This document shows, piece after piece, positions 10,412 through 60,269 of a DNA stretch of 64,000 nucleotides. The stretch comes from Candidatus Aenigmatarchaeota archaeon (GTDB taxonomy: Archaea; Aenigmatarchaeota; Aenigmatarchaeia; CG10238-14; SCSR01), in contig JAUWZS010000002.1 of NCBI GenBank assembly GCA_030615205.1, positions 131,212 through 195,211 on the forward strand, in the 5' to 3' direction. A program made the position numbers and the translations under genes. The notes beneath the pieces are model-generated. The model saw only the letters and a list, made by a program, of their open reading frames with translations. It was not told the DNA's origin and did no database searches. The first letter of the stretch is position 1. Each line of letters opens with the position of its first letter.

Positions 10412-10511
10412 ATCGTTATACTTAATTTAACTTACTTATTATTAAAAAAATAAATGAATAATTATGACTGAGAATAATCCCGGAAGCAAAACTGGGAGCA
10501 AACCAAAAACA

Positions 10512-26236: not shown

Positions 26237-26266
26237 ATTAAATGAAATATTAAATGGTGTGTAGAA

Positions 26267-27496: not shown

Positions 27497-27517
27497 AGTG
27501 AAAAGTCGGAGAGAGAA

Positions 27518-28989: not shown

Positions 28990-31692
28990 TCAATCTGGTG
29001 TAAATAAAGGAGGCGGACCTCCTCCCCCACCTCCTGGAGGAACAGTGGTAGTTGTAGTGGTTACCACTTCACAAGCATCTCCACATTTTGGGTCTGAATA
29101 ATACGGTGGTGAAGGACAAGTTACTCCCCATGTATCAGCCTGATCTGGATTTGGAACATACCAACAATTGTCACAAGCATCTCCTACACCATCTGCATCT
29201 GCGTCTGGTTGATAAGGTTCTCTAAATTGCACATTTGTTCGATAGTAGAACCAATCTGTTGGGCTCCTAATTCTTAAGTAAAACGGTTCTCCAGGATTTA
29301 TACCATAATCACCTAAGTCAATTTCATCAGATGTAATAATATTGCAATCTGAAGCAGAAGCTACAGTCCAGACTAATGTTCCTGCACCTCCACATTCTCC
29401 AGTTACAATATAATAATCCACTGGTCCTGTTATGAGATTACCAGGCTTGAATTGCAATCTCATCATATTAGAAGCTGGGCTTACAAAATCATACCAAAGG
29501 TCAAATGAATCTACTCCCCAACCACAGCTTGCACCACTATAACCATTAGCTCCTGTTCCACAACTCCAAGTTCCAGTAAACTTATGTCTGACATCTTCAT
29601 GATCAATAACTTCAGTAGTTGTATAAGTATATTCGACGTTTGCTATGTTAGGACAGTTATCTATATAATCTGGAACACCATCATTATCATCGTCATTAAG
29701 TGGATGATAATCTTTCCCATCACCATCTCCTGGAATTTCATAATAATTTGGAAGTCCTGGGTTACTTAACAAGTCAGACCAGTAATTACCAACATCGCTA
29801 AGATTCCAATTGTTGTTAGTCGATTTATCAGTTTCATAAGCATTCTCCTCATTATCTATGAAAGTGTTGTTCCAATAATTATTATAATCTGAATCACCGA
29901 GGGATGCTCCATAATTGTTATTTCCGATCAACTCATTGCTAGTGACGTCGTTGTAAGAGCTTTCAGCCAAATAAATTCCATCCCAACCATTGTAGTTTGC
30001 AGTATTACCAGTAAGGGCGTTGTTGTTAGAGTTGAAAGCCACAAAAAAGCCATTAGCACCATTGTAGTTTGCAGTATTAGCGATTAGATTGTTGTAAGAG
30101 CTCGTATATAAAAAAACGCCATCACCATCGTTATCGTTCGCAGTATTACCAGTTAGATTGTTGTAAGAGCTTTGATACAAAGCAATTCCATGATAAAACT
30201 CCTGTACATTGCAATTCTTAATAGTAACTCCATCCTTATTATCAAGATAAATTCCAATACCAAGACCGGTATTGTCTCCATCAATAAAACGACCAGCACA
30301 ATCAAGAGTTATATCACTAGCACCGATTATTAATCCATCCTCCGGGCAGTTTGTAAGGTTAGCAATCAATAGCGTATCATCTGTTATTGTTTCTCCGCAA
30401 CTGGCTACATAACCTTTATCTGCATAATAAATCATCTCTTCAACTCCGCACTCTCCATACCCAACAAAAAAATAACCATCATGGGGATCTGGTTCTTTTA
30501 GTGTTGTTCCATCCCAACCTATTCCCCAACTGTTTTTAGCAATCCAATACCCTTCGTACCATAAAAAGCCAGTATCCTTATAACCAGTAATAATCACATT
30601 ATGCCTGTTTAGTGAGACTGGGAAACACCTAAGAATATCTTCATCCCAGAAACTATCAACTTCATTCATAAATATACTAGTTACAAGAGGTCCCTTCTCA
30701 ATAAGATGTTGTTTAATGGTTTGTTGATTACTCGAAACAGGACCATAATCATCTATTTTTTCTAATCTACTTTCCCAATCCCCACACAATTCACAAGGAA
30801 CATTTGCTTGATAAGGTTTGTTAGGGAAGCAATCCTCATCAACTACTCCTTCATTCTTAATGTATTCAAAGACTATATTAGGAAATCCGCCAGTGCTACA
30901 AGAACCACAACCAGTACAACAATCATCTCCATTTGAAATTAATTGTTGCTCTGATAAGTCTAAATCAAGGTTAGGGTTATTCTTACGAATATTGTACATA
31001 GCTTCCACTACCCCAATAGAGGCAAATGCCCAGCAGGAACCACACATAGTACCTTGGTTCTTTACAGAAGTCATCCAATCTTCCCCATTTTTATCTCTCC
31101 AGTCAAATGAATCGGGTAAACTCATTGTTGAAACCCTTTCTTCTGGAGCAGTTGAGGTTTGTTCTATGGAAATGCTTCCTCTAGTAGCCTTTTTACTCAA
31201 ACCAAACAAATCTGTGACAGAACCAATTTCCTTTTTTTTACGAACACAAACAGCATAATGTCTTGAAAAAGGATTCTTACCATCAGTCTTTACTATCAAA
31301 TCATAGCCTTGTCTAGCACAATAAGAATATTCTTGTCCACATTTTCCTGTCAAGAATTGCCATTCTTCGCATTCGCTTTTATCAGGAAATATGCATATAC
31401 CTTTCTGTCCTCGGTCTGTATCAACTATTTTGTATTCATATCCCAGATCATGACAATATACAGCAGCAGGGTTAGCCATTCCATAAGAATCGATATTAAT
31501 GGAGCTTTCACAGATCTTTTTCTGTTGACCAGGGGCTCTCTCTAATCCTGATGGAGATGCTTGTGACGATGCTCCCCTTGATTTGATGCTTGGGTCTGCA
31601 CTGACCATAGAGTTAACGATAAAGACAGATAGACATATCAGCATTACCAGGAACAATATAACTATTTTTTTGTTGATATTCACACCCCCCAA
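28990..31692 (-). CDS. secreted multidomain papain-family (C1) cysteine protease: DUF333-like + C1 + beta-helix repeats + TSP3-like Ca-binding repeats
   Basis: Signal peptide. DUF333-like MANPAAVYCHDLGYEY...CEEWQFLTGKC. Catalytic CGSCWAFAS and AKNSWG. Repeated NNLTGNTANxNDGDG units (parallel beta-helix). DDDNDGVPDYIDNCPN and DADADGVGDACDNCWYVPNPDQAD. Tail TTTTTTVPPGGGGGGPPPLFTPD. Start is TTG 31692 or GTG 31683. Confidence 0.8.
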   Translation of the reverse strand: MGGVNINKKIVILFLVMLICLSVFIVNSMVSADPSIKSRGASSQASPSGLERAPGQQKKICESSINIDSYGMANPAAVYCHDLGYEYKIVDTDRGQKGICIFPDKSECEEWQFLTGKCGQEYSYCARQGYDLIVKTDGKNPFSRHYAVCVRKKKEIGSVTDLFGLSKKATRGSISIEQTSTAPEERVSTMSLPDSFDWRDKNGEDWMTSVKNQGTMCGSCWAFASIGVVEAMYNIRKNNPNLDLDLSEQQLISNGDDCCTGCGSCSTGGFPNIVFEYIKNEGVVDEDCFPNKPYQANVPCELCGDWESRLEKIDDYGPVSSNQQTIKQHLIEKGPLVTSIFMNEVDSFWDEDILRCFPVSLNRHNVIITGYKDTGFLWYEGYWIAKNSWGIGWDGTTLKEPDPHDGYFFVGYGECGVEEMIYYADKGYVASCGETITDDTLLIANLTNCPEDGLIIGASDITLDCAGRFIDGDNTGLGIGIYLDNKDGVTIKNCNVQEFYHGIALYQSSYNNLTGNTANDNDGDGVFLYTSSYNNLIANTANYNGANGFFVAFNSNNNALTGNTANYNGWDGIYLAESSYNDVTSNELIGNNNYGASLGDSDYNNYWNNTFIDNEENAYETDKSTNNNWNLSDVGNYWSDLLSNPGLPNYYEIPGDGDGKDYHPLNDDDNDGVPDYIDNCPNIANVEYTYTTTEVIDHEDVRHKFTGTWSCGTGANGYSGASCGWGVDSFDLWYDFVSPASNMMRLQFKPGNLITGPVDYYIVTGECGGAGTLVWTVASASDCNIITSDEIDLGDYGINPGEPFYLRIRSPTDWFYYRTNVQFREPYQPDADADGVGDACDNCWYVPNPDQADTWGVTCPSPPYYSDPKCGDACEVVTTTTTTVPPGGGGGGPPPLFTPD

Positions 31693-32365: not shown

Positions 32366-32884
32366 GTGGGAAAAATGGGTAGTTTAAAAGATGCTGCTGC
32401 TAAGGTCATTGGTCGGATAAGTTCGAACAGGCTTACTCCTTATAATAAACTTACTCCTTATCTTTTCGATTCTGATATGAGTGCAGAAGATGTCCAAGGC
32501 CTCGCACCAGAAACAGGAAGTAATACTGCTTATGTTGCTGGCTCACCTTCAGGGCAAAATGCTAGTATTGGCAAAAGATATAAACTTGCCGGAATCATTC
32601 TAGGAGCTACTGATCTTCTTTGCGCGGGTATATATAAAATAGTTGTTGAACATGGTATGGATTTGTATTACAAGTTTGTTCCAGGCTCAGAAGCATATAA
32701 TGGACTACATCCCGCTCAGAAGTTACTTCGTCATCTTGTGTCTGCTGATGCTCCAAAACTTGGTCCTATTACACCAGTCTCAGCAGGTTGGATTGCTTTA
32801 ACCGCAGCATGGTTAGTAGGTTTAGGATTATATCTCCATGGCAGAGACAAGGAGGGGGAAAAAGAAATAAGGTCTTTCGAATGA
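32366..32884 (+). CDS. hypothetical protein with C-terminal TM, translationally coupled to the S8 protease
   Basis: The stop overlaps the protease ATG (ATGA at 32881-32884). Hydrophobic AGWIALTAAWLVGLGLYL near the C-terminus. Start is GTG 32366 or ATG 32375. Confidence 0.5.
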   Translation: MGKMGSLKDAAAKVIGRISSNRLTPYNKLTPYLFDSDMSAEDVQGLAPETGSNTAYVAGSPSGQNASIGKRYKLAGIILGATDLLCAGIYKIVVEHGMDLYYKFVPGSEAYNGLHPAQKLLRHLVSADAPKLGPITPVSAGWIALTAAWLVGLGLYLHGRDKEGEKEIRSFE

Positions 32885-35529
32885 TTCCAAAATATCTTCA
32901 AAAAAATTCAGGGAAGTTTTTATTACTTTTTTCTATATTTTTTTTGCTAATAACACCAAATCTTGCAAACGCAATTTATTCTCAGTATTCCCAGATTCCA
33001 ACCAAAGTCTTTGAACTTGACAAAACCATTCCACAGGAAAACGTGACGATGAAAGGAATCGTCGTGGTTTCTCCTACTCGTCCAAATAAACCAAAGTTAT
33101 TAAAGAAAGGGGAAATAAAGAACGACAAAAAACTCTCAAATATTGTGAGAAAATATGATGGAAACATAGCGTTTACATCAAAATATGGTCATTCCTATAT
33201 AGATGTACCTGAAGAAAATTATGAAGCAATCATAACTAAGCTAAGGGCCGTGGGGTATAAAGTAAGAGACGAATTGATATTACAACCTATGCTCGACGAA
33301 TCATTGGTTGTCATAAGTGCACCTTATACTTGGTACAGCAGCGGCCAAGAATTAACTCTCACTGGAAATAACAGGGTCATTGCAATACTTGATACAGGAA
33401 TAGATGATACCCACAGCGATCTTCAAGGCAAGGTCCTTGCATGGAGAGATTCAATCGAAATCGTCGATAATGAAAATTATGGAAGTATTACTCCTTACGA
33501 TGACAACGGACATGGAACCTTTGTAAGTTCTATAGCTGTTGGAACTGGTGAAGCATCAAGCGGTCAATACACAGGAGTTGCACCCGGTGCAAACCTTTTG
33601 GTGGCCAGAGTCTGTGGACCAGTATACAACTGGGGATACTTACGGTGGGAATGTAGAGAACGCTATCTGGAAGATGCGTTGCAATGGATAATCGATCTCT
33701 TTGATTCCGGAGCATACCAAGCGGATGTGATAAGCATGAGCCTTGGGGCATCGAACCCAGAACCAAATAAATGCACGGACATGAACTCTGGTATGAATGA
33801 ATTGATCTCAGATGCCATTTCAAGAGGCATTCCTGTAGTTGCAGCTGCTGGAAACGATGGTCCTGCAAATGATATAAAGGTAGGTGGGATATTTGAAGGG
33901 GCTATAACTTGGCCAGCTTGCGTACAAGATGTGATTGCTGTAGGCGCAACGTACAAAAAGGCCTACCAAGGTTACAGTTTTGGTTTGGATATCCAAGAGC
34001 GTTTGTTAGTAAGTACTAAAGTCCATGTCAAAATTGATTGGGTTGATCCTGATGGTATAGCTCGCTCTGATGAGTATGAATGGGAAGCTTTCAATGCATC
34101 ATGGTCGGGCTTATATGAAAAGTCAGGTTTCGACAAAGTAATTAATCCTGGTCCATATACTGAAGACGTTTGGGTTAGTTATGAAGTGATGGAAAGAGTT
34201 ATAGGTTGTCACCTATTATTTGGTTGTCCACATATCGACGAAATATGGTATCCATCAGGAAGTGAAGAAAAGGGAGTGGCTTATTTTGGGAGACAATGTT
34301 ATGTGCCTTTTGGGTATGATAATCAAATGGTAGTTCAATTCTCAGCATGGCCGATGGTTGAAGAGATACCGGGCATACTAGGATGGACATATTATCATAC
34401 CTACTTTCCTCGTTATGAACCAGAGCCAGGCATACATGGCGAACCCAAAGGAATAAATATTAACTGTTATAAGAACATTCATGACTGGGAACTTATGACA
34501 GATTTCATTCCCTTCTGGAGTAGCAGAGGTCCTCCTCCTCAAGGTGGAATAATGAAACCTGATGTTGTCGCACCTGGTTATCATATATGTGCAGCTCATG
34601 CAGAAAATACAGAAATAGGAGAAGATATTTGCGGCAATGATCAATATACAGCTGCTATGGGAACTTCTGCTTCAACACCTTTTGTTTCTGGATTGATCGC
34701 ATTACTAAAAGAGGCAAAGCCAAATGCGGACATCAACTTGGTCAAAGATTCCATATTCAATACAGCAGATGATGTTTGCGGGGTTAATGGTTATGATGGT
34801 TATTGGAATGACAAATATTCTTGTGCAGGAGAAGGTCATGGCAGAATAAATGTACAGAAGGCCGTGGATTATATAACAGACTGCAGCCTTAAAGATGGCT
34901 GGAATTGTAACAGGAATAGTAGAGAATACTGGGATTATTATTATGATAGTGAATCTGGATCTTGTACATATTCTATAACTGCAAATGAAGATTGTAGAGT
35001 CGATGCATCTGATTCTGATGGAGGTCTAGCATACAAAACAAGAGGAACATGCACGGATTACACAGGCTGCTTAAATGGAAATTGTCAAAGCAGTAGTTAT
35101 ACAGATGTTTGTGCCAAGGACGCTACTCCAGACTGTAGAGATGAACCATTCAACTGTCCCTCTGGAAATTGTAAGACTCTGGGTTTTGATTCTGGAAAAT
35201 GTTTTCATGATGTCAGTTGTAACCCACCATATTTACCAGTCTGTGAAGTAGACTGTGTCGCAACTTATGGCTCTGGTTGGAGTTGTGCCTGGGACCCTTG
35301 GTATGGATGCTACTGTAAAAAACAAGCCAGTATAACAGCAGGCCATGAAAACTATGTAAAAGAATATTATGTTTCTGGAACGGGCGATTCAACCACTTGT
35401 AGCTATACTTATAAGAACTGTAAGGATTATGGGACATATTGGACTTGTTCTGATGGAAGATGTGTGTATACTAGTAGTGATGGCGGTGGGGGTGGAGGTG
35501 GTGGACCTCCTAGATTTACTGTGAAATAA
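32881..35529 (+). CDS. secreted subtilisin-family (S8) serine protease with Cys-rich C-terminal region
   Basis: Signal MIPKYLQKNSGKFLLLFSIFFLLITPNLANA. Catalytic triad in AILDTGIDDTH, DDNGHGTFVSS and GTSASTPFVSGL. Many Cys in the last 230 aa. Tail SSDGGGGGGGGPPRFTVK. Confidence 0.85.
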   Translation: MIPKYLQKNSGKFLLLFSIFFLLITPNLANAIYSQYSQIPTKVFELDKTIPQENVTMKGIVVVSPTRPNKPKLLKKGEIKNDKKLSNIVRKYDGNIAFTSKYGHSYIDVPEENYEAIITKLRAVGYKVRDELILQPMLDESLVVISAPYTWYSSGQELTLTGNNRVIAILDTGIDDTHSDLQGKVLAWRDSIEIVDNENYGSITPYDDNGHGTFVSSIAVGTGEASSGQYTGVAPGANLLVARVCGPVYNWGYLRWECRERYLEDALQWIIDLFDSGAYQADVISMSLGASNPEPNKCTDMNSGMNELISDAISRGIPVVAAAGNDGPANDIKVGGIFEGAITWPACVQDVIAVGATYKKAYQGYSFGLDIQERLLVSTKVHVKIDWVDPDGIARSDEYEWEAFNASWSGLYEKSGFDKVINPGPYTEDVWVSYEVMERVIGCHLLFGCPHIDEIWYPSGSEEKGVAYFGRQCYVPFGYDNQMVVQFSAWPMVEEIPGILGWTYYHTYFPRYEPEPGIHGEPKGININCYKNIHDWELMTDFIPFWSSRGPPPQGGIMKPDVVAPGYHICAAHAENTEIGEDICGNDQYTAAMGTSASTPFVSGLIALLKEAKPNADINLVKDSIFNTADDVCGVNGYDGYWNDKYSCAGEGHGRINVQKAVDYITDCSLKDGWNCNRNSREYWDYYYDSESGSCTYSITANEDCRVDASDSDGGLAYKTRGTCTDYTGCLNGNCQSSSYTDVCAKDATPDCRDEPFNCPSGNCKTLGFDSGKCFHDVSCNPPYLPVCEVDCVATYGSGWSCAWDPWYGCYCKKQASITAGHENYVKEYYVSGTGDSTTCSYTYKNCKDYGTYWTCSDGRCVYTSSDGGGGGGGGPPRFTVK

Positions 35530-49637: not shown

Positions 49638-49687
49638 TATTCCTAACTCTTGAGAATTAAAAAAAGAAAAAAGAAAGGTAAAAGATT
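49638..49687. repeat. copy A of the 3-copy intergenic element (31-nt perfect core TCCTAACTCTTGAGAATTAAAAAAAGAAAAA)
   Basis: Directly abuts the stop (49688) of the minus-strand gene remnant. On the minus strand it reads as a pyrimidine/oligo-T tract followed by AATTCTCAAGAGTTAGGA. Confidence 0.9.
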
Positions 49688-50160: not shown

Positions 50161-50865
50161 ATGGTGAAAGAAGGGGGGAAAATGGTAACTAAAGAGGAAG
50201 CTATTAAAGCGGTCCCATCATATATAGTACCTCCCGAATGTTTTATTTGGAATTGGACGGGAGCAAAAGATGGGTGGGGCGTCATTCCAGGCACTGGCTG
50301 TGCCCACTATGTGGCACATGAACATAATCCTAATATTAATCTCACGTCCCATAATACTAAACACAAGTGTTATTACTGTAAAAAATCTCAAAAAACTATA
50401 GGTAATCATAATGGAGGACGTGCAATCCGAGTTACACAAGTTAGAGCGTGGGCCAGGATTCACTATAAGAAGCCTAAACCCCTTAAGGAGGTATGCAAAA
50501 ATGATATATGGCTTAGGATAAGGGGAAAAAGCAGTCATAGTGGAATTGTGGAATCGGTAACATATGAAAAAAGTAAGCAGAAAATTGAGATTAGACATTG
50601 TAAGAAATCTGCAGGCGGCGTTACACACGATATACATGGTACTAACGGTGTTAAAGGTGGATTGTTTTATGGTCCTCCTAAGCCTCCACTTAAGTCTAAG
50701 TTCTTAGGTAATAAAAACACGACAGAAGTACACAACCTCAATAATGAACAAACAAATTGTCAGATAAATGAAATAAAAGATAGCAAGAAATTTGAGTCGT
50801 TGAAAGAAGCACATGACGAGGGATATGATAACTGTCATTATTGCTTAGGGGATTCAAAAAGATAG
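50161..50865 (+). CDS. Cys/His papain-fold (CHAP/NlpC-like) domain fused to an Ada-like zinc motif, paralogue 1
   Basis: GTGCAHYVAHE (putative nucleophile), SSHSGIVESV (putative His), C-terminal HNLNNEQTNCQINEIK...FESLKEAHDEGYDNCHYC. The ATG at 50182 is preceded by GAAGGGGGGAAA and may be the true start. Confidence 0.6.
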   Translation: MVKEGGKMVTKEEAIKAVPSYIVPPECFIWNWTGAKDGWGVIPGTGCAHYVAHEHNPNINLTSHNTKHKCYYCKKSQKTIGNHNGGRAIRVTQVRAWARIHYKKPKPLKEVCKNDIWLRIRGKSSHSGIVESVTYEKSKQKIEIRHCKKSAGGVTHDIHGTNGVKGGLFYGPPKPPLKSKFLGNKNTTEVHNLNNEQTNCQINEIKDSKKFESLKEAHDEGYDNCHYCLGDSKR

Positions 50866-50898
50866 AGATATTAAGTTTTATTTTAAAATATATGGTTC

Positions 50899-51201
50899 TT
50901 ATTCAACCAGGTCATCAAGATAACCACTTAGACTTGCCTTCATGCTTACATCATTATCTAGTTCTCTAAGGGAATCTTGTTTGGCTTTTATGAGTCTGGG
51001 CGACATTAGTGGATTGGCTAATGACCTGTACAAAGTCTTGTGGCCGACTTTGGTTTTAGTGTGGTCTATGACACTCATCAAATTCTCTACTTCTATAAGC
51101 CTCCAGGAAAGATCGTCCATGGTTCTATCCGGCATTTTTTCTTTGAGTTCTGAGTAATTCAGCTCTACTTCCAAGCTTCCATAATGAGTATAGTTAAACA
51201 A
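50899..51201 (-). pseudogene. 100-codon fragment of a MutS-family protein (core-domain start only)
   Basis: IDHTKTKVGHKTLYRSLANPLMSPRLIKAKQDSLREL matches the MutS pattern LD.T.T..G.R.L.RWL..P......I..RQ..I..L. The ORF stops after 100 codons and no ATPase domain follows. Confidence 0.55.
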
Positions 51202-51270
51202 AGTATCAAAGATTCTCGGATATGTGAGTTATGCTAAAATACTCAAATTCTCTGCCAAGAAAAGTGAATG

Positions 51271-51320
51271 TATTCCTAACTCTTGAGAATTAAAAAAAGA
51301 AAAAGAGGGAGAAAGTTTTT
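51271..51320. repeat. copy B of the 3-copy intergenic element
   Basis: TATTCCTAACTCTTGAGAATTAAAAAAAGAAAAAGAGGGAGAAAG, lying about 30 nt 3' of the stop of minus-strand gene 51352..51825. Confidence 0.9.
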
Positions 51321-51351
51321 GATTCTTAGAAAGAAGACAATACTAAAAACA

Positions 51352-51825
51352 TCAAAATGATTCAAACTTCCTTTTTAGGGTTTCAAGAGCCTTTTCATAA
51401 TCTATTAAAATTCTGAAGATAAAAATAAGGGCAGGCGACACCAAATACATAATTATTAATAAGTTTTTAAAAATAGATGAAAGAAAATATATACAAAGAG
51501 AACAATAAAAAGAAACAAGCGTAAATGCAGAAATATAATATAACGCCAAAACTATTTCATCCATTTGCTTTTTTAGGTTTTTTGATTTTGCTTTTCTTGA
51601 TGAATAACCCTTTTCATTAAAGAAATAGTCGACTACACCAAAAACGAATATTGGAAAAGAATAAAATATCGAGACCAGCATTAGTTTACCAAATTCCAAA
51701 TTAAGAAACTTTTCATATTCGCTTAAGTATAAATAACCAACACCAGGAATTGTTAATGCTAAAAATAGAAACAGATATGAAAGAATCTGATATCCTTTTA
51801 ATTTTTCCAAATTTGGTATTACCAT
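51352..51825 (-). CDS. polytopic membrane protein
   Basis: Start moved to MVIPNLEKLKG (ATG 51825). About 4 hydrophobic helices; very AT-rich. Confidence 0.5.
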   Translation of the reverse strand: MVIPNLEKLKGYQILSYLFLFLALTIPGVGYLYLSEYEKFLNLEFGKLMLVSIFYSFPIFVFGVVDYFFNEKGYSSRKAKSKNLKKQMDEIVLALYYISAFTLVSFYCSLCIYFLSSIFKNLLIIMYLVSPALIFIFRILIDYEKALETLKRKFESF

Positions 51826-51889
51826 ATAAAAATAGAATGAGTAGGTTAACTTATAACTCTTTTTAGGATATAAACTAATTGGGGATAAA

Positions 51890-52123
51890 ATGGTCAAAAA
51901 GTCTAAACATGAAATCAAAATTCTAAGAGATTATGCTCTTGGAGGTCTTGCTATCATTACAGCAATCTTCTTAGCTACCTGGCAAGAAATTATGAAAATT
52001 CTTAAACCTAACCTAATATCACTTTTGATTACTTTAGCAGGAACAACATTTGTATTCTTCTTTCTTTTGTATGTATATTTTAATCCTGAGAGATTTCTAC
52101 GTGGTAAAAAACCTAAAAAATAA
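51890..52123 (+). CDS. small two-TM membrane protein
   Basis: 77 aa. LGGLAIITAIFLATW and LLITLAGTTFVFFFLLYVYF. Confidence 0.45.
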   Translation: MVKKSKHEIKILRDYALGGLAIITAIFLATWQEIMKILKPNLISLLITLAGTTFVFFFLLYVYFNPERFLRGKKPKK

Positions 52124-52156
52124 ATCTTAATTTTTTATGAAAGTTCCTAATCTCTA

Positions 52157-52699
52157 TTAAGATGCCGAAACATAATACTCTTTATGATATTCCCGTTCGA
52201 TTGGGATAAATTTCAATTTCTTTTTATCTAGAATTAAAATATATGAACAAAATTTGTGTCCAATTTTTTGACGTAAAATTTTTAATTTTTCTCTTTCTTT
52301 TTCTATTACTTTAGGAAATGTTCTGTTTGTCCAAGAGTATTTTTTTCTCCTTAATTTTATTTCTATCACAGCATTAGGCTTTTCAAACGCGTATGCTTTT
52401 GAAGGTAATCTAAAAATACGAGAACCTTTAACTTTTAGCGTAGAAACGTCAATTACCACAATATCAGACCTTAGGTTTAAACTTGCATCGCTTCCATACC
52501 ATCTAACTTCACAATGTAGAGGTATAGACTTTTCTCCATCTTTAGTTGCTTCAATTTTACCAAAATCCTCGAGTAATAAGTGGTAGAGATAACTCCTCAC
52601 GTCTGCTTCTGTAAGAAATTTATCTGGATGCTTTTTGAACTCGTCTATTAATTTACCTATTTCCTTTTCAATTGATTTGTTTAAAACAGATTGAATCAT
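52157..52699 (-). CDS. PD-(D/E)xK (restriction-endonuclease-fold) nuclease-like protein
   Basis: Ordered core motifs TEADVRSYLYH ... SDIVVIDVS ... NAVIEIKL (E ... D ... ExK). Confidence 0.5.
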   Translation of the reverse strand: MIQSVLNKSIEKEIGKLIDEFKKHPDKFLTEADVRSYLYHLLLEDFGKIEATKDGEKSIPLHCEVRWYGSDASLNLRSDIVVIDVSTLKVKGSRIFRLPSKAYAFEKPNAVIEIKLRRKKYSWTNRTFPKVIEKEREKLKILRQKIGHKFCSYILILDKKKLKFIPIEREYHKEYYVSAS

Positions 52700-52840
52700 A
52701 ATTCCAATTTTAAAATTTAAAGATTTATAGAAAGAAAAGTGTAATTGTGCGTATATGAAAAGAAACTCGCTGTTTTTTATAGTGTGTTTAATGAAGTCTG
52801 TTTTTATTAAAGTTTTAAATTAAGACATATTTAGAAGAAT

Positions 52841-53443
52841 ATGGCAAGATGTAGTAAAAAACTGAAAAAAGAAGTATCAATTAAAATAGCTAGAGATAGC
52901 CTCGATAATGCAAAAAGCTATTTGGAAGATTCGAAGAAGATATTAAATTCTAATCCGGGACATGCTTATGCATTAGGCGTTTTGGGTATAGAAGAACTCC
53001 AAAAGGCTACCATTTTTTATGTACTGCCACGATCGACTGATTTTCCCATGAAACTTGATAAATCTCTCAAGAGTCTTTTTAAAAATCACAAAGCAAAACA
53101 ATTTGGTCAGGAACTAACATCATCAAATAGAATCTTTTTAGAGCTTTGGGATAAATATTTTAAACGTACGGGAGTTAAGCCTATTGATTTAATGAAAGAA
53201 CTTATAAAAAATCCATCAGACAAGAAATTTAAAAAAATAAAAGAAAAAGTAAATAAAAAATTGAAAGTTTATGAAAATATTGAGAATTATAAAAAAATAG
53301 GCATGTACGTTGACTTTATTAATGGAAAAGTTGTTGGTCCTAAAGATATTAATAAAAAATTAGCAAAAAAACTCATAAAGCATTTAGAGGAAGAGATTAA
53401 TTACACTGAACGTCTTTTCGATTCTATAAATAAATTTTTATAA
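52841..53443 (+). CDS. AbiV-like abortive-infection protein (HEPN superfamily)
   Basis: SLDNAKSYLEDSKKILNSNPGHAYALGVLGIEELQKATIFY and the downstream FKNHKAKQF match the AbiV-family pattern as I remember it. Confidence 0.55.
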   Translation: MARCSKKLKKEVSIKIARDSLDNAKSYLEDSKKILNSNPGHAYALGVLGIEELQKATIFYVLPRSTDFPMKLDKSLKSLFKNHKAKQFGQELTSSNRIFLELWDKYFKRTGVKPIDLMKELIKNPSDKKFKKIKEKVNKKLKVYENIENYKKIGMYVDFINGKVVGPKDINKKLAKKLIKHLEEEINYTERLFDSINKFL

Positions 53444-53486
53444 GCTTCCTCCCCACTAAAAATAAATAGAAAGAATAGGTTAAAAT

Positions 53487-53660
53487 ATGAAATGGGAAAA
53501 ACAAAAACAAATCAAAAAGGAAATAAATGAACTATTGCCGAGATTTCCAGAAGGAAATGCTAAAAATTATCGAAGGGTGCTCTATTTCCGTTTACGCTTG
53601 GAAGGCAAGACGAAAGAAGAAGCTTTAGAAGAATTGAGAAAGAGGAAACTCTACCCTTGA
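53487..53660 (+). CDS. possible 57-aa basic protein downstream of the AbiV-like gene
   Basis: Hand translation MKWEKQKQIKKEINELLPRFPEGNAKNYRRVLYFRLRLEGKTKEEALEELRKRKLYP. Purine-rich AATAGGT lies upstream. Below the ORF-track cut-off. Confidence 0.3.
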   Translation: MKWEKQKQIKKEINELLPRFPEGNAKNYRRVLYFRLRLEGKTKEEALEELRKRKLYP

Positions 53661-53712
53661 TAAAAATGGTAAGCCATTTAAGATTTACAAAAAATAAGAG
53701 AAAAATTATGAA

Positions 53713-54831
53713 TTAATATTTCTTCTCTATTATGAAAAATAACATATTTAGAATGCTCTGAACAATTTTAGGGAATTCTTTATAAATCGTTTCTCGTTCT
53801 TCTATCTTATGTCCACCAAAATTTCTCAGACAATATGTTAATGCAACGTCAAATTCGATTGCAATAGGATTGGTTACGAATCCTGTATCTGAATAAGTAT
53901 GGTTTGTTAATTTAGTTATTGTATTTTTAAAATTTCTATCTCTTTCTCCATTAAGAAAGTCTAAATTTTCCTTTTTGAGACTCAGATTAATGTCTTCACA
54001 AAAGAAGAGAGTATAATAAAATAAAGTGGGGGTTCGCCTAAGGCCATATCTAGCTTTTACCGAATCTTCTAGATATATGTTCTTTAACAATACCTCCACT
54101 AATTTACACAATTCAAATATTAAAGTTGTCTCCATGTACGAAGCAATAGTATTTTCTCGTATTCTAGGTTCAATTTCATTGATTATTTTTTTTAACTTAT
54201 AGATAGAATAAACGAAAAATAAAGCTTCTTTATAATAGGAACTTTTCTTCAAAAACTTAGTCCTTAATAAATCAATATCAAGAGAGGTTTGATTGATGGT
54301 CCTGTAACATTCTAATCTCTCATTAAGAAAATTTACAGTTTCAACAACTTTTTGTCTAAAGAATTGTTCTTTTACCCCATGTTCCAAAAGTATAAAACAT
54401 TCTGCAGGTGTAGGTTTATCTGTACCAACCCTGCCTAATCTTTTATCTTCTTGATATGCCTGATGCATTAATAATAATCCTTTTTCTATATCTCCTTTTA
54501 GAATGGACACTGTACCATAAAAATAATAAGGTGTGCCTTTGTGAATTTTATCTGGTTTATTTTTATCTTCCCATTCATGGACTAAAGAGAGTATTTTATC
54601 AAAAACTAAATCACAAAGTTGGATAGGTTTTAAAGTATAATCTGGATTTAACCAGAATGAAGTAAAATTTTCAAATAAATGGTCGTGAATTTCATAGCTG
54701 TCATTTTTGTGTTTTGTAAGAAAATCGAATAAGGCCTGTTTAAAAGATAAGTCTAATATAAATTTTCCATTTCGAAAAAAGATTAATGCTTTTTCAAATT
54801 CGTCGTCTATGGGTTCGTTAAATCTATGCAT
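53713..54831 (-). CDS. hypothetical protein with C-terminal HEPN-type Rx4H motif
   Basis: VALTYCLRNFGGHKIEE, with the His codon at 53809-53811. Sequence looks all-helical. No other motif recognised. Confidence 0.5.
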   Translation of the reverse strand: MHRFNEPIDDEFEKALIFFRNGKFILDLSFKQALFDFLTKHKNDSYEIHDHLFENFTSFWLNPDYTLKPIQLCDLVFDKILSLVHEWEDKNKPDKIHKGTPYYFYGTVSILKGDIEKGLLLMHQAYQEDKRLGRVGTDKPTPAECFILLEHGVKEQFFRQKVVETVNFLNERLECYRTINQTSLDIDLLRTKFLKKSSYYKEALFFVYSIYKLKKIINEIEPRIRENTIASYMETTLIFELCKLVEVLLKNIYLEDSVKARYGLRRTPTLFYYTLFFCEDINLSLKKENLDFLNGERDRNFKNTITKLTNHTYSDTGFVTNPIAIEFDVALTYCLRNFGGHKIEERETIYKEFPKIVQSILNMLFFIIEKKY

Positions 54832-55178
54832 ACTAGAGAATAGTCGATTATGATATTAAAAACTTTCTTATTCTCTTCAGCTTAAAAATGGCTCTTATAG
54901 TAAAGGCATTTTATAGGGTACCTATAATTTGAATCAAAATTTGTATAAGGGTTAACAAAATCGCAAGAAAAGCCGTTACTATAGTAACAGCTTCGGGTCT
55001 TGTAAAAATGGTAAACCCTTTTTCATTCCACACACCTAAATGATTACCCACTTTCTATGTTTAAATATTTTATTTTCCATTGTTTAACTTTCTCTGAATT
55101 TTTTTCAAAACAACAAAGATTCTTTTTATTTCTATAATTATATATGATATACAGAAGATTCCAGTCGTCTGTTAATAC

Positions 55179-55823
55179 CTATAAAAAGCCTATAGGTTCG
55201 TAATTCATCCCTGCCTTTACCTTTGTTCTTTCTTTGAAAACATTCAAATTTTTAACAATTTCTTTTGATTCTTCTTTGAAGAAATACGAAAATAAAAATT
55301 CTAATAAATTTAGAATTTGATAATCGATTGTATAAGTACCGTATTGATGAAATTCTAGATGAACCAAATTATTTCTCTTTATTCGAATCCATTCAAAAAC
55401 TTCTTTAATTCTTTTGATTTGTTTTGGTGATAATGTTTTTGGAAGGAACTCTAGTAATTTATTGCTACATTTCTTAAAAGAGAACTTTCTGTTTTCAATG
55501 CTATCTATAAAATATTTATAATCTTCTTTCAAAATTATGGCTTTCAATAGTATTTCTGTCCCTATCCCAATAAGAATTCCTTTAATTTCGGGTTTAGATT
55601 CTCCGAAAAACCATGTTCCAAAACCAGTGCCTTCGTATGCATAAATAATAAGATTCTCAGCTCGTTTCATTAGTATTTCATGTGGTGAGTTTTTTAGACC
55701 AGTGTCTTTCTCTCTCTTGCTCTCTGGAGATGTATAATATTTTTTAATTCTTTCAATTCCTTTTTTATGATAGGTTTTCAAATCTTTTATGTCGTTTTCC
55801 AACTTTGAATATCTTTGAGGCAT
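55179..55823 (-). CDS. HEPN-like protein (Rx4H)
   Basis: GIGTEILLKAIILKE (N-terminal HEPN-like helix) and WIRIKRNNLVHLE (RNxxxH). Confidence 0.5.
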   Translation of the reverse strand: MPQRYSKLENDIKDLKTYHKKGIERIKKYYTSPESKREKDTGLKNSPHEILMKRAENLIIYAYEGTGFGTWFFGESKPEIKGILIGIGTEILLKAIILKEDYKYFIDSIENRKFSFKKCSNKLLEFLPKTLSPKQIKRIKEVFEWIRIKRNNLVHLEFHQYGTYTIDYQILNLLEFLFSYFFKEESKEIVKNLNVFKERTKVKAGMNYEPIGFL

Positions 55824-55915
55824 ATATAAAACTTTATTGTCAAGTTTTTAAATTTTCTTAAAACTTCATTTAAAATGCTTAAATTCGGGTAAAAACTGAG
55901 TTTTAATTGAAAAGT

Positions 55916-56638
55916 ATGAATGAAATAAAAAGATTACAAAAATTTATGGAAAAACTTAACGAGGTAGTTCGACCATCAATGTTGTTTCATTCACAATGGC
56001 AACTTAGAATTATTGATGAGATAACTAAATCTCAAGCTTTTGTAAAAGAATTGAGAGAATTTCATACACCAACCCATAAAAAATTTAGAAAAGAGTGGGG
56101 GTGGTTAGTAGGTAAACGCCCATTTAGGGTTGGGAACTACTGGTATTCTTATTATAAAAAACGGGGGAATAACAAGTTTAGAGATGCTCTTTGCCGGTGG
56201 TTTTCGAGCAAAAGAAATCAGAATTATTTATTAAATGAGATGAATACTGTTTTTCCAGAAAAAAGAATTGAGATAATAAAAGAGGGTTTCAAATACCATA
56301 GAGATAAAAGATACTCAATATCGATACCATTATTACTTCCTCAAGTCGAAGGGGTTCTTTGGGATTTAGGTGCTAAGAAGGGTAAAGTCAGGAAAGCATA
56401 CAATTCAAGGGAAAAAAAATCAGGTGGTGAATGGGAATTGCCCGAATTATCTAAAGAAATTTTTCCAAATGACAAGTTTCATAAAATCATAGTTCGTGAA
56501 ATCTATTCTGAAAAATTTAGACATCCAGTATTACATGGCCGGAATATCCATAAAGGTAAAGAGAAAGAGATATCTCGATGGAGATCTACACTTTTAATTC
56601 TTACACTTTGGAGATTATCGGATGAATTTAAAAGCTAG
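55916..56638 (+). CDS. HEPN-like protein (Rx4H-G)
   Basis: IPLLLPQVEGVLWDL ... EKFRHPVLHGRN ... RSTLLILTLWRL. ATG at 55916 lies inside the TTG-initiated ORF. Confidence 0.45.
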   Translation: MNEIKRLQKFMEKLNEVVRPSMLFHSQWQLRIIDEITKSQAFVKELREFHTPTHKKFRKEWGWLVGKRPFRVGNYWYSYYKKRGNNKFRDALCRWFSSKRNQNYLLNEMNTVFPEKRIEIIKEGFKYHRDKRYSISIPLLLPQVEGVLWDLGAKKGKVRKAYNSREKKSGGEWELPELSKEIFPNDKFHKIIVREIYSEKFRHPVLHGRNIHKGKEKEISRWRSTLLILTLWRLSDEFKS

Positions 56639-56687
56639 AAATATAATCCATTTTAATACTTCCCACTCCGAGCATTAAAGCACTCCA

Positions 56688-56735
56688 TACTCCTAACTCT
56701 TGAGAATTAAAAAAAGAAAAAGAAAGGAAAAGATT
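56688..56735. repeat. copy C of the 3-copy intergenic element
   Basis: TACTCCTAACTCTTGAGAATTAAAAAAAGAAAAAGAAAGGAAAAGATTA, directly abutting the stop (56734) of minus-strand gene 56734..57252. Confidence 0.9.
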
Positions 56736-57252
56736 AAGCTCCGTATCCTGCTGGAATTCCGTGTGCAGCCCACCAATGCCCTGTTGGGCCTGTTCTTTGT
56801 TTGTGTATGACTTCCATTTGTCCCCAGATACAATATCCACCATCTCTCCAATTTGGATTTGTATTATCGCAGGGTGTTCCTACCCAAACTATCTTAGAAT
56901 GATAGCTTCTTCCTGAACCACCCGGAAACATTCCATTCCACTGATTGTTAACCCATGCGTCAGTAGTCCAAGGCGACTCATCGCCACTATATCTAGTGTT
57001 ATCTGGTCCAAAGACCGCATCATGCCAAGCTTGTGACCATTTCATTACTAGGTGGTCATCTGCATCCTCGCCGATTGCGGTTTCACATGCAACCTTATCA
57101 GTTATCCCTAGCTTTTGTTGACAGTATTGCATTCCTGTTCCAACGAATACTAATGCTTTCCAGTTGTATCCTGCTGGTTTAGCAATTACTGTAGTTGCTA
57201 GCATTAACGAAGCCACTAGAACTAATCCAAACAAAGTTTTTTTGTTTTTCAT
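56734..57252 (-). CDS. secreted Trp/Gly-rich protein, unassigned
   Basis: Signal MKNKKTLFGLVLVASLMLATTVIA. The mature part is rich in W, G and N (WVNNQWNGMFPGGSG, GHWWAAHGIPAGYGA). Confidence 0.55.
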   Translation of the reverse strand: MKNKKTLFGLVLVASLMLATTVIAKPAGYNWKALVFVGTGMQYCQQKLGITDKVACETAIGEDADDHLVMKWSQAWHDAVFGPDNTRYSGDESPWTTDAWVNNQWNGMFPGGSGRSYHSKIVWVGTPCDNTNPNWRDGGYCIWGQMEVIHKQRTGPTGHWWAAHGIPAGYGA

Positions 57253-57497
57253 AGTTGTAATTAAGATAGTTAAAGATTAATCTCTATGAGTAAATTCGAA
57301 ACGCTTTAATATGGAAAAATGCGGCAGACAGTTAGTTGCAGAAGAAGAATGTAATAAATTATTCGAAAAAGTTAAGAAAGTTAAAAGAACGGAAATTGGC
57401 AAAAAAGCTAAATTAATTCTTTTTTGAATCAGTTCTAAAATTTAAGAACTTGCAAATCAAAATAATATTCAACATGCTGTTTAAGTGGTGTTTGTAA

Positions 57498-58124
57498 GTG
57501 GTGTTTGTAAGATTTTTCGATTGGTTGTCCGGACTGCTCGGATTTAGAAAAAATATCACTTTAGGTGTGTATGGCGAGATTAACGTAGGCAAAACTACTT
57601 TGGCAAATAAAATTTCTTTGGATTGGGCAGGCGAGGAGGTAGGCATAGTTTCTAAAATCCCGCATGAAACCAGGACTATCCAGAAAAAAGAAAAAGTAGT
57701 GATACCGCTCAACGGAAGAAGAAAGATCGTGCTTAACTTGTTGGACATGCCTGGACTTGCAACAAAAGTTGATTACAAGCAATTTATGAAATATGGGATA
57801 AAACGCAAGGCTGCAAAGAAGCGAGCAAAAGAAGCGACCAGAGGCGTGATAGAAGCGATTAAATGGTTGGACAATGTTGATACAGTACTTGCTGTAATGG
57901 ATGCAACAAAAGATCCGCTCACGCAAGTCAATCTCACATTGCTAGGCAACCTAGAAGCAAAAGGAATACCGGTAATAATCGTTGCAAACAAGATTGACAA
58001 AAAAAGAGCTAAACCCAAAAGGATAAAAAGTGCTTTCCCAGAATATCCTGTAATTCCTATATCTGCACTCAAAGGAAAAAATATTGATAGATTATACAAG
58101 GCGATTGGTAAACATGCGAAATAA
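57498..58124 (+). CDS. small GTP-binding protein (archaeal GTPase of the DUF2073/DUF2072 operon)
   Basis: G1 GEINVGKTT, G3 DMPG, G4 NKID. GTG start inside a 13-nt tandem duplication. Confidence 0.8.
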   Translation: MVFVRFFDWLSGLLGFRKNITLGVYGEINVGKTTLANKISLDWAGEEVGIVSKIPHETRTIQKKEKVVIPLNGRRKIVLNLLDMPGLATKVDYKQFMKYGIKRKAAKKRAKEATRGVIEAIKWLDNVDTVLAVMDATKDPLTQVNLTLLGNLEAKGIPVIIVANKIDKKRAKPKRIKSAFPEYPVIPISALKGKNIDRLYKAIGKHAK

Positions 58125-58656
58125 AAAATTGCGGAATAAAAACTCTAAGAAGAGAAATGCTAGGAAAAACGCTAAGAAAAATGTAAAGAAAAATTCAAAG
58201 AACAAACGAGCTAAGGTAAATGCGAAAAATATCGCAAGATCTAACTTAAAGATAGATTTTATTTCATCAAATGTTTTGAATAAAAAGAGTGAGAAGAGTA
58301 GGATCACTTATATCTTAGATATAGTAAAAGACGGCACTATACTAGTTACAGACGGTGTGATGAGTCCTGATGAAGAGCTGGACTTGATTAGAGAGACTAT
58401 GCGGAAAGTAGATGATGGGTTTCCGGGAATAGAAGTCTGCAGTTTGAAAAGAGAGGCAGAGGGTTATCAAAGATTTGCAGAGCAACTTATGGAACAAAGA
58501 TACAGTATAAGAAAAGTAATTAATAAAATTATAGGAAGGGCGTCGCCGCAGATAGATCTGAAATATGGGATGACCCTTATCGGACCGTCCAGGCTTATCA
58601 AGAAGATAAAGAAAAGTCCTGATTCGTTCTCAGTTTTTGCACAATTACAAAAGTAA
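58114..58656 (+). CDS. DUF2073-like archaeal protein with K/R-rich N-terminal extension
   Basis: ILDIVKDGTILVTDGVMSPDEELDLIRETMRKVDDGFPGIEVCSL. ATG 58114 overlaps the GTPase stop. Confidence 0.65.
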   Translation: MRNKKLRNKNSKKRNARKNAKKNVKKNSKNKRAKVNAKNIARSNLKIDFISSNVLNKKSEKSRITYILDIVKDGTILVTDGVMSPDEELDLIRETMRKVDDGFPGIEVCSLKREAEGYQRFAEQLMEQRYSIRKVINKIIGRASPQIDLKYGMTLIGPSRLIKKIKKSPDSFSVFAQLQK

Positions 58657-58721
58657 TTTCATACAAAAACAATTTCAGGAACGTAATATTTCAGAGTACG
58701 AATATAATTTAAGTGGTTTTG

Positions 58722-59327
58722 ATGCACAAGTGCGTACGTTGTGGCAATACATATAAAGATAATGATAGTAGCATTCTCCGCGGTTGTACTCAATGCAGTG
58801 GCATTTTCTTTCTCTATATTAAAGGCGAAGCAGATACAAAACAGTTGGATGCAGTGCAGAGGGATCTACAGGAAAGAGACACAACATTAGAAAAAGAGCT
58901 TGTTAAACAAATTGAGAAACGAAGATCCAAGAAGCGCGTTAGAAAGAGAGTCAAAAAGAAAATTAAAAGAAAAGTCAAAGTAAAAGCGAAGGTTAAGAAA
59001 AAAGTTGGCAAGAAAAAAGTCAGGAAACGAGCCGTCAAGAAAAAACCAAGAAAGGAGAAAGTAAGAAAGGAAATAGTAAGAAAAGAAAAAGCGGAAAAAA
59101 TAGAGAAACCAGAGAAAATTGTAAGAAAGGAAGTAATAAAAATTGGGAAGGAAAAATTCGCAGTTGAAGATATTTTTGGAATCGAGACAGTCCGCGTGCC
59201 AAAAGATGGCGTATATGAAATTAATATCGATGGACTGATGAAGAAAAGGCCTGTTATAGTTTTAGAACGCGGGCAAGTTTATCTTATCCATTTGCCGCTT
59301 CTTTTTGAGGAACTGAGCGAAATCTAA
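58722..59327 (+). CDS. DUF2072-like zinc-ribbon protein with Lys-rich middle
   Basis: MHKCVRCGNTY...GCTQCSGIFFLYIK zinc ribbon, then a long K/R/V low-complexity stretch. Third gene of the conserved archaeal GTPase operon. Confidence 0.65.
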   Translation: MHKCVRCGNTYKDNDSSILRGCTQCSGIFFLYIKGEADTKQLDAVQRDLQERDTTLEKELVKQIEKRRSKKRVRKRVKKKIKRKVKVKAKVKKKVGKKKVRKRAVKKKPRKEKVRKEIVRKEKAEKIEKPEKIVRKEVIKIGKEKFAVEDIFGIETVRVPKDGVYEINIDGLMKKRPVIVLERGQVYLIHLPLLFEELSEI

Positions 59328-59561
59328 TTATAGCGAGATGTAAACCTCGAATAACACTCAATTTCTATACCTTCTCCGTCACTCAAGAATAAATGTTATA
59401 TTTTAAATCATGTATTTGCAAGTATGGATAAAATCCACAGGTCCGGATAAAGATGATGAGACGCTACTTGATGATAAAAAGATGAAATCGAGTTACCGCC
59501 CTGATTCCGAAACGCTTTAATTTAGCACTAGAAATAAGTTGGCCGGTTACTCGTGGACTCA

Positions 59562-60269
59562 CTATCTTGTAGACTTACCGGGCTTACAGTACGCACAAGG
59601 ATCATAACCATAGTCCAATGCCTCTTTTTTTGACGAAAAGTGTACCTTGCATTTTATTTCATCTATTTGACAATTTTTCTTTTCCTTTTTTAGATCATGA
59701 AACTCAAATTTCCTTTTTGGGTCCGTAGGGTTACAGTTACCCAACCATCTTGTTTTAGGCAACTTAGGACCGTAGAACTCCCCTCCTCTAACTGATTTAC
59801 TGGTGCCGTACGTTACTGTTGTGGGAGCAGCACTCTGAGGATGGTGAGAGACTCGGATAACGGGCTTTCTACCTGGAGTTACGTCAACCACATAGCCACA
59901 ATGTCCACTTACCCCATCTGGGTTCAACCTAGCCCAAATGTCTCCTTTTCTCACTTTGTGCAACTTGCCAAGTGGGTCTTCACTAGTGCGCATTTCCCAG
60001 CCTTTTCCTAGGAAGTATTGTACTACCTGGCCAACTCTAATTGGGTGGTCATTGTAGCATCTGACCCCTCTGGAAATTGTTATTTTTTTCGCACCAGCAA
60101 CATAATGAGCACAAGGAGTGCCCCCAATTGGGCCATATCCTACTTCATTATTTATATGCCAGAAAAGACATCTTGGTGTTATATATGAAGGCACTTTAGC
60201 TTCTGCGCATTTTGGGTCACAGTATCCTTCTTCTTCTGGTTTTTTCTTGTTAGATTTCTTTTTAGTCAT
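59562..60269 (-). CDS. Cys/His papain-fold (CHAP/NlpC-like) domain fused to an Ada-like zinc motif, paralogue 2
   Basis: GTPCAHYVAGA, VSGHCGYVVDV, C-terminal HDLKKEKKNCQIDEIK...FSSKKEALDYGYDPCAYCKPG. Collinear with 50161..50865. Confidence 0.6.
   Translation of the reverse strand: MTKKKSNKKKPEEEGYCDPKCAEAKVPSYITPRCLFWHINNEVGYGPIGGTPCAHYVAGAKKITISRGVRCYNDHPIRVGQVVQYFLGKGWEMRTSEDPLGKLHKVRKGDIWARLNPDGVSGHCGYVVDVTPGRKPVIRVSHHPQSAAPTTVTYGTSKSVRGGEFYGPKLPKTRWLGNCNPTDPKRKFEFHDLKKEKKNCQIDEIKCKVHFSSKKEALDYGYDPCAYCKPGKSTR

Follow-up and report, generated by a model that had tools for sequence, protein, structure and literature searches.

A rare fusion of a candidate papain-like domain with an ADA_N-like zinc module, encoded by two convergent paralogues in an aenigmatarchaeal chromosome

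Hydrolases of the NlpC/P60 and CHAP families, such as MepS/Spr, the type VI secretion system (T6SS) amidase Tse1/Tae1, Mycobacterium tuberculosis RipB and the CHAP lysins, have a cysteine at the N-terminus of a helix, a histidine at the start of a strand and a second histidine on the next strand. The toxins of extracellular contractile injection systems (eCIS), the eCIS-associated toxins (EATs), carry an N-terminal DUF4157/eCIS_core domain, which is a marker of these systems, and the toxin at the C-terminus (PMC8213781). ADA_N-like domains form an X-group in ECOD, whose 2025 curation found them mostly at C-termini, in L4, Cwp27, ArfC, ComEC and LGFP proteins, several of them secreted or of the envelope, and listed their function as unknown (PMC12353581). 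Our literature search on 'sunset'/ADA_N-like domains and on DPANN with NlpC found nothing beyond that paper. Here we analyse two genes in a stretch of 64,000 nt (the window) of contig JAUWZS010000002.1 from a Candidatus Aenigmatarchaeota archaeon, whose products join an N-terminal domain (N-domain) resembling the first of these groups to a C-terminal domain (C-domain) resembling the last. Our results suggest, with a probability of about one half, that the protein is a modular hydrolytic effector, in which a papain-type head would be combined with an ADA_N-like zinc tail for targeting, anchoring or docking.

The initial annotation had described two open reading frames (ORFs) of about 234 aa, aligning end to end and one third identical by eye. 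Both were recovered where it had placed them (Table 1), with 234 aa in paralogue 1 (P0005) and 235 aa in paralogue 2 (P0001), and BLASTP gives a slightly higher identity, of 38% (87/226, E = 7e-31, residues 18-228 against 26-228). Every shared block that it quoted is present (VPSYI, G-T-x-C-A-H-Y-V-A, IRV, DIW, S-x-H-x-G, G-G-x-F-Y-G-P, L-G-N and N-C-Q-I-x-E-I-K...G-Y-D-x-C-x-Y-C), and the genes converge across 8,696 nt, in line with its 8.7 kb. Profile hidden Markov models (HMMs) of the N-domain and the C-domain match paralogue 1 with E-values of 6.6e-26 and 2.3e-29, and find no third copy of either domain in the window. Ten aligned family members share invariant C34, C53-A-H-Y-V-A58, C71, D110, H123, H142, G163/F165/Y166/G167, H191, C200, C225 and C228 (P0001 numbering). 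The putative catalytic triad is C53/H123/H142 in P0001 and C47/H126/H146 in P0005, and the putative zinc ligands are H191/C200/C225/C228 in both. Scans of the two proteins against Pfam, NCBIfam, PHROGs and PADLOC gave no match above threshold, which bears out the claim that the fusion lies outside characterised families. An entry 100% identical to paralogue 1 exists in a public protein collection, on a 350-kb NCBI contig, and cluster look-ups returned only 'hypothetical protein' or no name. The pair are genuine paralogues, and the two-domain fusion that they encode has no name in any library searched.

The fusion is rare, and its two halves mostly occur apart. When 1.84 billion cluster representatives were searched exhaustively with a HMMER profile (E <= 1e-3), 385 matched, only about seven of which contain both halves (P0003, P0006-P0010 and P0086); the others match one module each, at profile positions ~15-170 or ~175-238. 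We put the size of the fusion family at about 7-10 clusters. Because nearly all matches are single-module, the protein must be regarded as a fusion of two independently mobile modules. A word-indexed search of 5.8 billion proteins found only six relatives, the two window proteins included. Metagenome and genome scans recovered a single full-length fusion locus, the known Nealsonbacteria contig, and otherwise C-domain-only loci, which dominate these scans because the usable search pattern lay in the C-domain. The Nealsonbacteria locus, with member P0004 adjoining lspA and lgt, belongs to a metagenome-assembled genome of Candidatus Nealsonbacteria, a bacterium of the Candidate Phyla Radiation (CPR). 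Since the window is archaeal, with an OapABC operon and a tRNA that fits an intron-containing archaeal one, the family has crossed the domain boundary. Neither module had a tblastn match in 50,697 phage records, and neither was found in 72,556 plasmids or in IMG/VR, which argues against a viral or plasmid origin. The ratio of nonsynonymous to synonymous substitution rates (dN/dS) is 0.35 between P0001 and its 83%-identical orthologue at locus L012, and 0.31 both for P0003 against P0004 and for P0001 against P0003; the fusion genes are functional and under moderate purifying selection. P0001 is 52-83% identical to the proteins of other organisms, against 38% to P0005, and the synonymous sites between P0005 and P0001 are saturated. 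The window copies are ancient out-paralogues or separate acquisitions. Overall, the fusion is an accessory gene, rare and horizontally mobile. Each of its parts is distantly related to a known kind; no name exists for the N-domain family, and the combination is undescribed.

The residues that led the initial annotation to compare the N-domain with CHAP and NlpC/P60 amidases are kept in its homologues. In an alignment of 57 N-domains, Cys34, Cys53-Ala54, Cys71 and His123-x-Gly125 are invariant (P0001 numbering), and His55, His59, His142 and Ser144 are near-invariant. The third member of the putative triad, His142, is conserved in at least 90% of the family and replaced by Glu in one member; Glu-type substitutions are tolerated at the third position of CHAP triads. 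In most members, two His stand at i/i+4 on the same helix; the domain also has a C-A-H-x-V-A-H helix motif. We modelled P0001 with AlphaFold2 (mean predicted local distance difference test, pLDDT, 92.1; predicted template modelling score, pTM, 0.85), together with a stand-alone member, P0035 (pLDDT 95.1). According to DSSP, the model of P0001 has Cys53 as the second residue of helix 52-60, His123 in strand 122-131 and His142 at the end of strand 137-142. In that of P0035, Cys41, equivalent to Cys53, opens helix 40-49, and the two histidines lie on successive strands. Judging from these models, a Cys at the N-terminus of a helix followed by His and His on consecutive strands is the predicted arrangement of the N-domain, and it is that of the NlpC/P60-CHAP enzymes.

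These enzymes are also the commonest structural neighbours of the N-domain. Foldseek searches of the PDB with the P0001 model returned about 30 papain-like enzymes among the top 50 matches, including MepS/Spr, Tse1/Tae1, the CHAP lysin Ly7917, an NlpC/P60 endopeptidase of T. thermophilus, a C39 peptidase and staphopain, and the BFVD list contains many CHAP, Peptidase C51 and lysin A entries, the top three with a probability of 0.99. For P0035, the only full-length matches, which also had the highest template modelling (TM) scores (0.42-0.50), were Spr, SagA, Acd24020 and RipB. Pfam searches with 37 N-domain relatives gave CHAP as the sole recurrent family (3/37, best E 1.2e-3, below the gathering score), besides single weak matches to DUF1287 and Peptidase_C54. 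The Pfam models of CHAP, NLPC_P60 and the like did not match either window protein at E <= 10, and PDB searches with a single protein and three profiles gave nothing relevant. In a non-significant hhalign alignment to MepS, the two histidines of the family fall on the two catalytic histidines of MepS. The motifs stand in the same register, with G-D-[IV]-W...H-x-G-[IV]-V...I-x-H-x-S in the N-domain and G-D-L-V-L-F...H-V-G-I-Y...F-V-H-A-S in MepS. The proposed likeness to CHAP and NlpC/P60 thus stands as regards the placement of Cys and His on helix and strands and the weak fold matches, but it does not reach statistical significance. We conclude that the N-domain is probably a very divergent papain-like hydrolase of the NlpC/P60-CHAP kind, whose membership is unproven by score.

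The way in which relatives of the N-domain are deployed fits an effector. Among 50 relatives surveyed for fusion partners, we found eCIS_core/DUF4157 in seven, VgrG (Phage_GPD with gp5) in two, Hydrolase_2 in two, SLT in one, CARDB in four and PKD (PKD_4 and PKD models) in four. The N-domain comes after VgrG in P0091, after DUF900 in P0033 (which has a signal-like hydrophobic N-terminus by eye) and after BACON, DUF11 and CARDB in P0154, and it comes before Hydrolase_2 in P0103. A PAAR gene lies directly after P0113, which also encodes VgrG and the N-domain. Many of the large relatives, which are giant surface proteins, have a Sec signal with the domain directly after it. In such relatives, the N-domain is the C-terminal cargo of DUF4157 proteins and of VgrG spikes, as in EATs and evolved VgrG effectors, and these T6SS/VgrG and eCIS cargoes are deployed as Tae effectors are. 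The parent family is an exported or injected effector domain found alongside wall hydrolases. Among the stand-alone N-domain proteins, about 16 of 37 lack a signal and start with a B-box-like Cys/His finger. The finger follows the pattern C-x2-H-P-G-R...Y-C-x2-C in P0038, P0040, P0043, P0046, P0049 and others, and is a second, independent pairing of the N-domain with a small Cys/His module.

The C-domain follows the consensus R-Y-L-G-N-x-N-x-K-E-V-H-D-L-x-N-E-x-x-N-C-Q-I-D-E-I-K, and then F-D-T-L-x-E-A-x-x-x-G-Y-D-N-C-x-Y-C-x-G-x-S-x-R up to the stop codon. Alignments of 24-37 sequences show that the predicted ligands His and two Cys, as well as a Gln, are invariant, and that C225 is conserved in at least 90%. 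The domain closes the protein in 24 of 24 aligned sequences, usually with G-x-S-x-R, and it occurs both as stand-alone proteins of 57-93 aa and as the tail of proteins of ~300 aa. Its likeness to the zinc module of Ada, proposed from the H...C...G-Y-x-x-C-x-x-C block, was upheld by several weak matches. Pfam Ada_Zn_binding (PF02805) matches P0001 with 14.2 bits (cutoff 23; E 0.044, aa 211-230) and 7 of 37 C-domain relatives (best E 3.7e-4), the NCBIfam 'sunset' model NF051437 gives 19.8 bits (cutoff 27), and the L17 and L4 'sunset variant' models of NCBIfam also match below threshold, as does phrog_28292 on P0005 (aa 179-211, E 6.9e-6). An hhalign comparison of the C-domain alignment with residues 1-80 of E. 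coli Ada gave a probability of 85.7% (E 5.4e-6, 35 columns), with Cys200, Cys225 and Cys228 aligned with Ada Cys42, Cys69 and Cys72. This is comparable to the HHpred values of 82-98% that were accepted for ADA_N-like domains in ECOD (PMC12353581). Like the domains of that X-group, PF02805 and NF051437, the C-domain has a terminal F-x-S-x-x-E-A-x-x-x-G-[YF]-x-x-C-x-x-C and lies at the extreme C-terminus of diverse proteins. Unlike Ada, it has a His as first ligand and a spacing of H-x8-C instead of C-x3-C, and it scores below the curated cut-offs. It also has a signature of its own, L-G-N-x-N...E-x-H-x-L...N-C-Q-I-x-E-I-K, and the conserved G-x-S-x-R end. By these sequence features, it is a distinct ADA_N-like subfamily.

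The zinc module has its own link to contractile injection loci. It is found on a Baseplate_J protein (P0092, with two C-domain copies after Baseplate_J) and in an eCIS locus, where P0078 (293 aa, with a C-domain tail; L017, 780-7626) lies between a DUF6519 protein of 1129 aa and an eCIS_core protein of 825 aa. Two other occurrences are of interest. At L014 7261-7761 (+), 500 nt downstream of the fusion homologue P0009, another C-domain protein of 166 aa consists of a glycine-rich transmembrane segment, a basic Pro-rich linker and the zinc module. A stand-alone C-domain ORF (L027, 8749-8919) lies on a contig that is thaumarchaeal-like by eye, its ribosomal and exosome-like genes being of archaeal type; the ORF is located between a DUF3800-like gene and tyrosine-recombinase fragments (7925-10781), apparently in a small integrated element, as judged by eye from the translations.

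Our comparisons show the paralogy of the genes, the domain boundaries, the conservation, the separate mobility of the two modules with their fusion partners, the purifying selection and the lack of conserved neighbours; catalysis, substrate, the role of the tail and the exit route from the cell are what we infer. In this mechanism, Cys53 of the ~150-aa N-domain would be the nucleophile, with His123 serving as general base and His142 completing the triad. The bond cleaved would be an amide or peptide bond, and its most probable location a peptide in the envelope of another cell. The ~60-aa C-domain, with His191, Cys200, Cys225 and Cys228, would be non-catalytic and act as a targeting, anchoring or docking tail, and the two parts may work like the catalytic head of a lysin with its binding domain. 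Modular endolysins and autolysins are built in this way, with the catalytic head first, a small binding tail last and no signal peptide; unlike endolysins, the fusion has a tail of only putative binding function and lacks a phage context, a holin and viral homologues. The initial annotation was right that a signal peptide is missing: the two proteins have neither a hydrophobic N-terminus nor a transmembrane segment (maximal Kyte-Doolittle means over 15 residues of 0.98 and 0.44). Yet its conclusion that they are not wall lysins is unsafe, given that relatives of the N-domain are overwhelmingly exported or injected. Moreover, Sec signals are likewise missing from endolysins and T6SS/eCIS cargo, and their absence is therefore not evidence against an extracellular target.

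Several observations weigh against such an effector. The best Foldseek E-values of the P0001 model are 0.046 (PDB) and 0.0044 (BFVD), no match being significant alone and no TM score exceeding 0.50, and the lowest E-values of the P0035 model are to partial eIF5A beta-barrels (78 columns, TM 0.25). The hhalign probabilities of the N-domain against the CHAP domain of LysK, Tse1 and MepS are below 1%. The N-domain differs from the NlpC/P60-CHAP enzymes by an extra N-terminal beta-hairpin, by the C-A-H-x-V-A-H helix motif and by two additional invariant cysteines (C34 and C71), which, with H55, are unaccounted for by a simple triad; the extra cysteines and the helix motif may form a structural metal site or a disulfide. 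It also differs by having neither a significant profile or fold score nor a covering Pfam or NCBIfam model. The archaeal host has no murein to serve as substrate. An immunity-like partner is not conserved at the six fusion loci that we compared (the two in the window and L002, L004, L012 and L014). No sheath, tube, baseplate or other injection-system genes were found among the large ORFs of the window, which encode SMC, Lhr, proteases, the CARDB protein of an ABC operon, Tmk and OapABC or have no Pfam match. Finally, unlike EATs and VgrG effectors, the window proteins lack DUF4157, VgrG and PAAR parts as well as a Sec signal, and no export route is visible.

The fusion might instead be an intracellular enzyme or regulator directed at nucleic acids or the ribosome, with DNA or RNA as the ligand of its zinc tail, on the model of Ada or of the 'sunset' tails of L4 and L17, and with a Cys-His domain that is a cytoplasmic protease, deamidase or acyltransferase acting on nucleoprotein. 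The absence of signal peptides and transmembrane segments and the basic character of both proteins (pI 9.5) would suit this, and so would the facts that Ada-N is a DNA-binding zinc domain, that sunset variants are the tails of ribosomal L4 and L17, and that pairing with a zinc module recurs in the 16 of 37 signal-less relatives with a B-box-like finger. Yet ADA_N-like domains are without demonstrated function and several lie on secreted envelope proteins (PMC12353581), the partners of the N-domain are nearly all export or injection modules and wall hydrolases, and the fusion has no helix-turn-helix or regulator domain and no conserved operon partner. We consider this alternative possible, if unlikely. 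A non-hydrolytic, metal-binding or adaptor role of the N-domain, with C34, C53, H55, C71, H123 and H142 ligating zinc or iron, seems quite doubtful. The three invariant Cys, the three to four conserved His, mostly with the i/i+4 pair, and the lack of significant matches to papain-like families speak for it. However, the positions of C53, H123 and H142 reproduce the NlpC/P60 topology, a Glu replaces the third His in one member, NlpC/P60 and CHAP enzymes dominate the structural neighbours, and the fusion of the domain to other wall hydrolases points to an enzyme. At the other extreme, the zinc module might be a portable 'address tag' that docks cargo on injection or cell-contact machinery, on the target envelope or on nucleic acid, and the fusion a signal-less trans-domain effector exchanged by ultra-small episymbionts (CPR, DPANN-like) and used on their hosts. 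If this rather unlikely idea were true, the N-domain would be a new, widely deployed papain-like effector family with an extra Cys/His metal site.

The remaining alternatives concern the position of the pair. The initial annotation saw the two genes as bracketing an accessory region and raised a functional tie to its HEPN/Abi genes, which would make them effector or regulator components of a defence island. There is indeed an AbiV-type HEPN gene between them, in a low-GC segment at ~51.3-56.7 kb (27-30% GC, against 36-40% outside) that is exactly delimited by copies 2 and 3 of a direct repeat. But HEPN/Abi genes are absent from the four other fusion loci, all-vs-all BLAST of the six loci found no common neighbour besides the fusion itself, PADLOC gave no match, the housekeeping OapABC operon separates paralogue 2 from the island, and both fusion genes fall outside the low-GC segment, with a GC content like that of the host. 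A defence role is very improbable, and the proposed tie is not borne out. We would put the least trust in the idea that the pair belong to a mobile element or provirus, either as its lysin or as end genes that mark its boundaries. This might be thought plausible given their inverted orientation, the C-domain match to phrog_28292, and the stand-alone C-domain genes found in small islands, adjoining integrase fragments or toxin-antitoxin genes (L027, L007). But the conserved OapABC operon lies within the interval, synonymous sites are saturated between the copies, and the phage, plasmid and IMG/VR collections gave no match. Since no neighbour is common to the loci, HEPN/Abi genes are absent elsewhere and nothing is viral, the bracketing is positional and not functional. 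For ancient out-paralogues with saturated synonymous sites and no terminal repeats of an element, it is a coincidence of position, or at most reflects that both copies favour a variable region. The convergent arrangement, with the HEPN island and the OapABC operon in between, is circumstantial and makes no system. Two candidate readings were rejected. As ends of an element, the genes are joined by a sole inverted repeat, which is the coding stretch N-C-Q-I-x-E-I-K, with no terminal repeat at the DNA level; an operon or defence system was ruled out by the absence of a common neighbour in the all-vs-all BLAST across loci.

The surroundings of the pair are otherwise ordinary chromosome, with genes for Lhr helicase, NUDIX, MgtC, HAD, TPM, LemA, thymidylate kinase, SMC and OapABC. 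Each copy of the direct repeat lies just 3' of a minus-strand ORF, without homologous flanks, and a contig of the same genome in the Logan assembly terminates at copy 3; an att-type duplication might account for the repeat, as might a shared terminator. No integrase was seen in the low-GC island (51300-56700). Paralogue 1 lies between copies 1 and 2, has host-like GC and adjoins a MutS fragment, which is a gene remnant truncated at both ends, between this paralogue and copy 2. Duplicated pieces of a 172-aa secreted gene, of the MutS fragment and of a 62-aa ORF were not found elsewhere in the window. Farther away, two very large proteases are neighbours, and an operon of ABC ATPase, CARDB protein and MacB/FtsX permease is common to the window and to L014 (1084-4098; 53% and 31% identity), which suggests that L014 comes from a related archaeon.

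Table 1. Features of the window (positions in nt from its first letter).
Feature	Position	Strand	Details
Paralogue 1 (P0005)	50161..50865	+	ATG start, both domains; ORF and translation
Paralogue 1, N-domain	50197..50679	+	~aa 13-173; hmmsearch envelope 13-173 and family alignments; putative Cys-His-His, NlpC/P60-CHAP-like
Paralogue 1, C-domain	50695..50862	+	aa 179-234; hmmsearch 179-237 of the stop-to-stop frame; predicted ADA_N-like/'sunset'-like H-C-C-C
Paralogue 2 (P0001)	59562..60269	-	ATG start, both domains; ORF and translation
Paralogue 2, N-domain	59760..60212	-	~aa 20-170; hmmsearch; DSSP on AlphaFold2 model
Paralogue 2, C-domain	59565..59753	-	aa 173-235; hmmsearch E 1.5e-23
Direct repeat, three copies	49638-49685, 51271-51318, 56688-56735		38-48 nt (TAYTCCTAACTCTTGAGAATTAAAAAAAGAAAAAG...)
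MutS domain III fragment	50899-51201	-	100 aa; profile positions 19-78 of 194, E 3e-9
AbiV-type HEPN gene	52841-53443		In low-GC island; Pfam E 3.6e-16
Island ORFs	52157-52699, 53713-54831, 55179-55823		No family match
Island ORF	55907-56638		Weak Imm9 match only
Fic/DOC-domain protein	1202-2137	+	
tRNA	3358-3477	+	120 nt; Rfam 61 bits, missed by ARAGORN; fits an intron-containing archaeal tRNA
Restriction-type nuclease	24651-25553	+	ATP-cone, Mrr_cat, AF1548-like
ABC ATPase, CARDB protein, MacB/FtsX permease operon	25550-28750		
Large protease	28990-31692	-	900 aa; DUF333, Peptidase_C1 (papain family), NosD/beta-helix, TSP_3
Large protease	32788-35529	+	913-aa subtilase

The fusion offers a way into the function of ADA_N-like tails and into a new effector family; no surprising mechanism is demonstrated by it. 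Were our reading wrong, the pair would be two ordinary accessory hypothetical proteins. If the protein is indeed a hydrolytic effector, an unnamed family of effector domains, with a few hundred clusters at 50% identity and found on VgrG spikes, in eCIS cargo and in giant surface proteins, would enlarge the catalogue of injected and secreted cysteine hydrolases. The ADA_N-like/'sunset' tail, fused here to an enzyme and elsewhere to a baseplate protein, would gain a testable role in targeting or docking. Finally, a CPR bacterium and an archaeon, from lineages whose interaction toolkits are largely unknown, would share a small signal-less candidate enzyme for host interaction.

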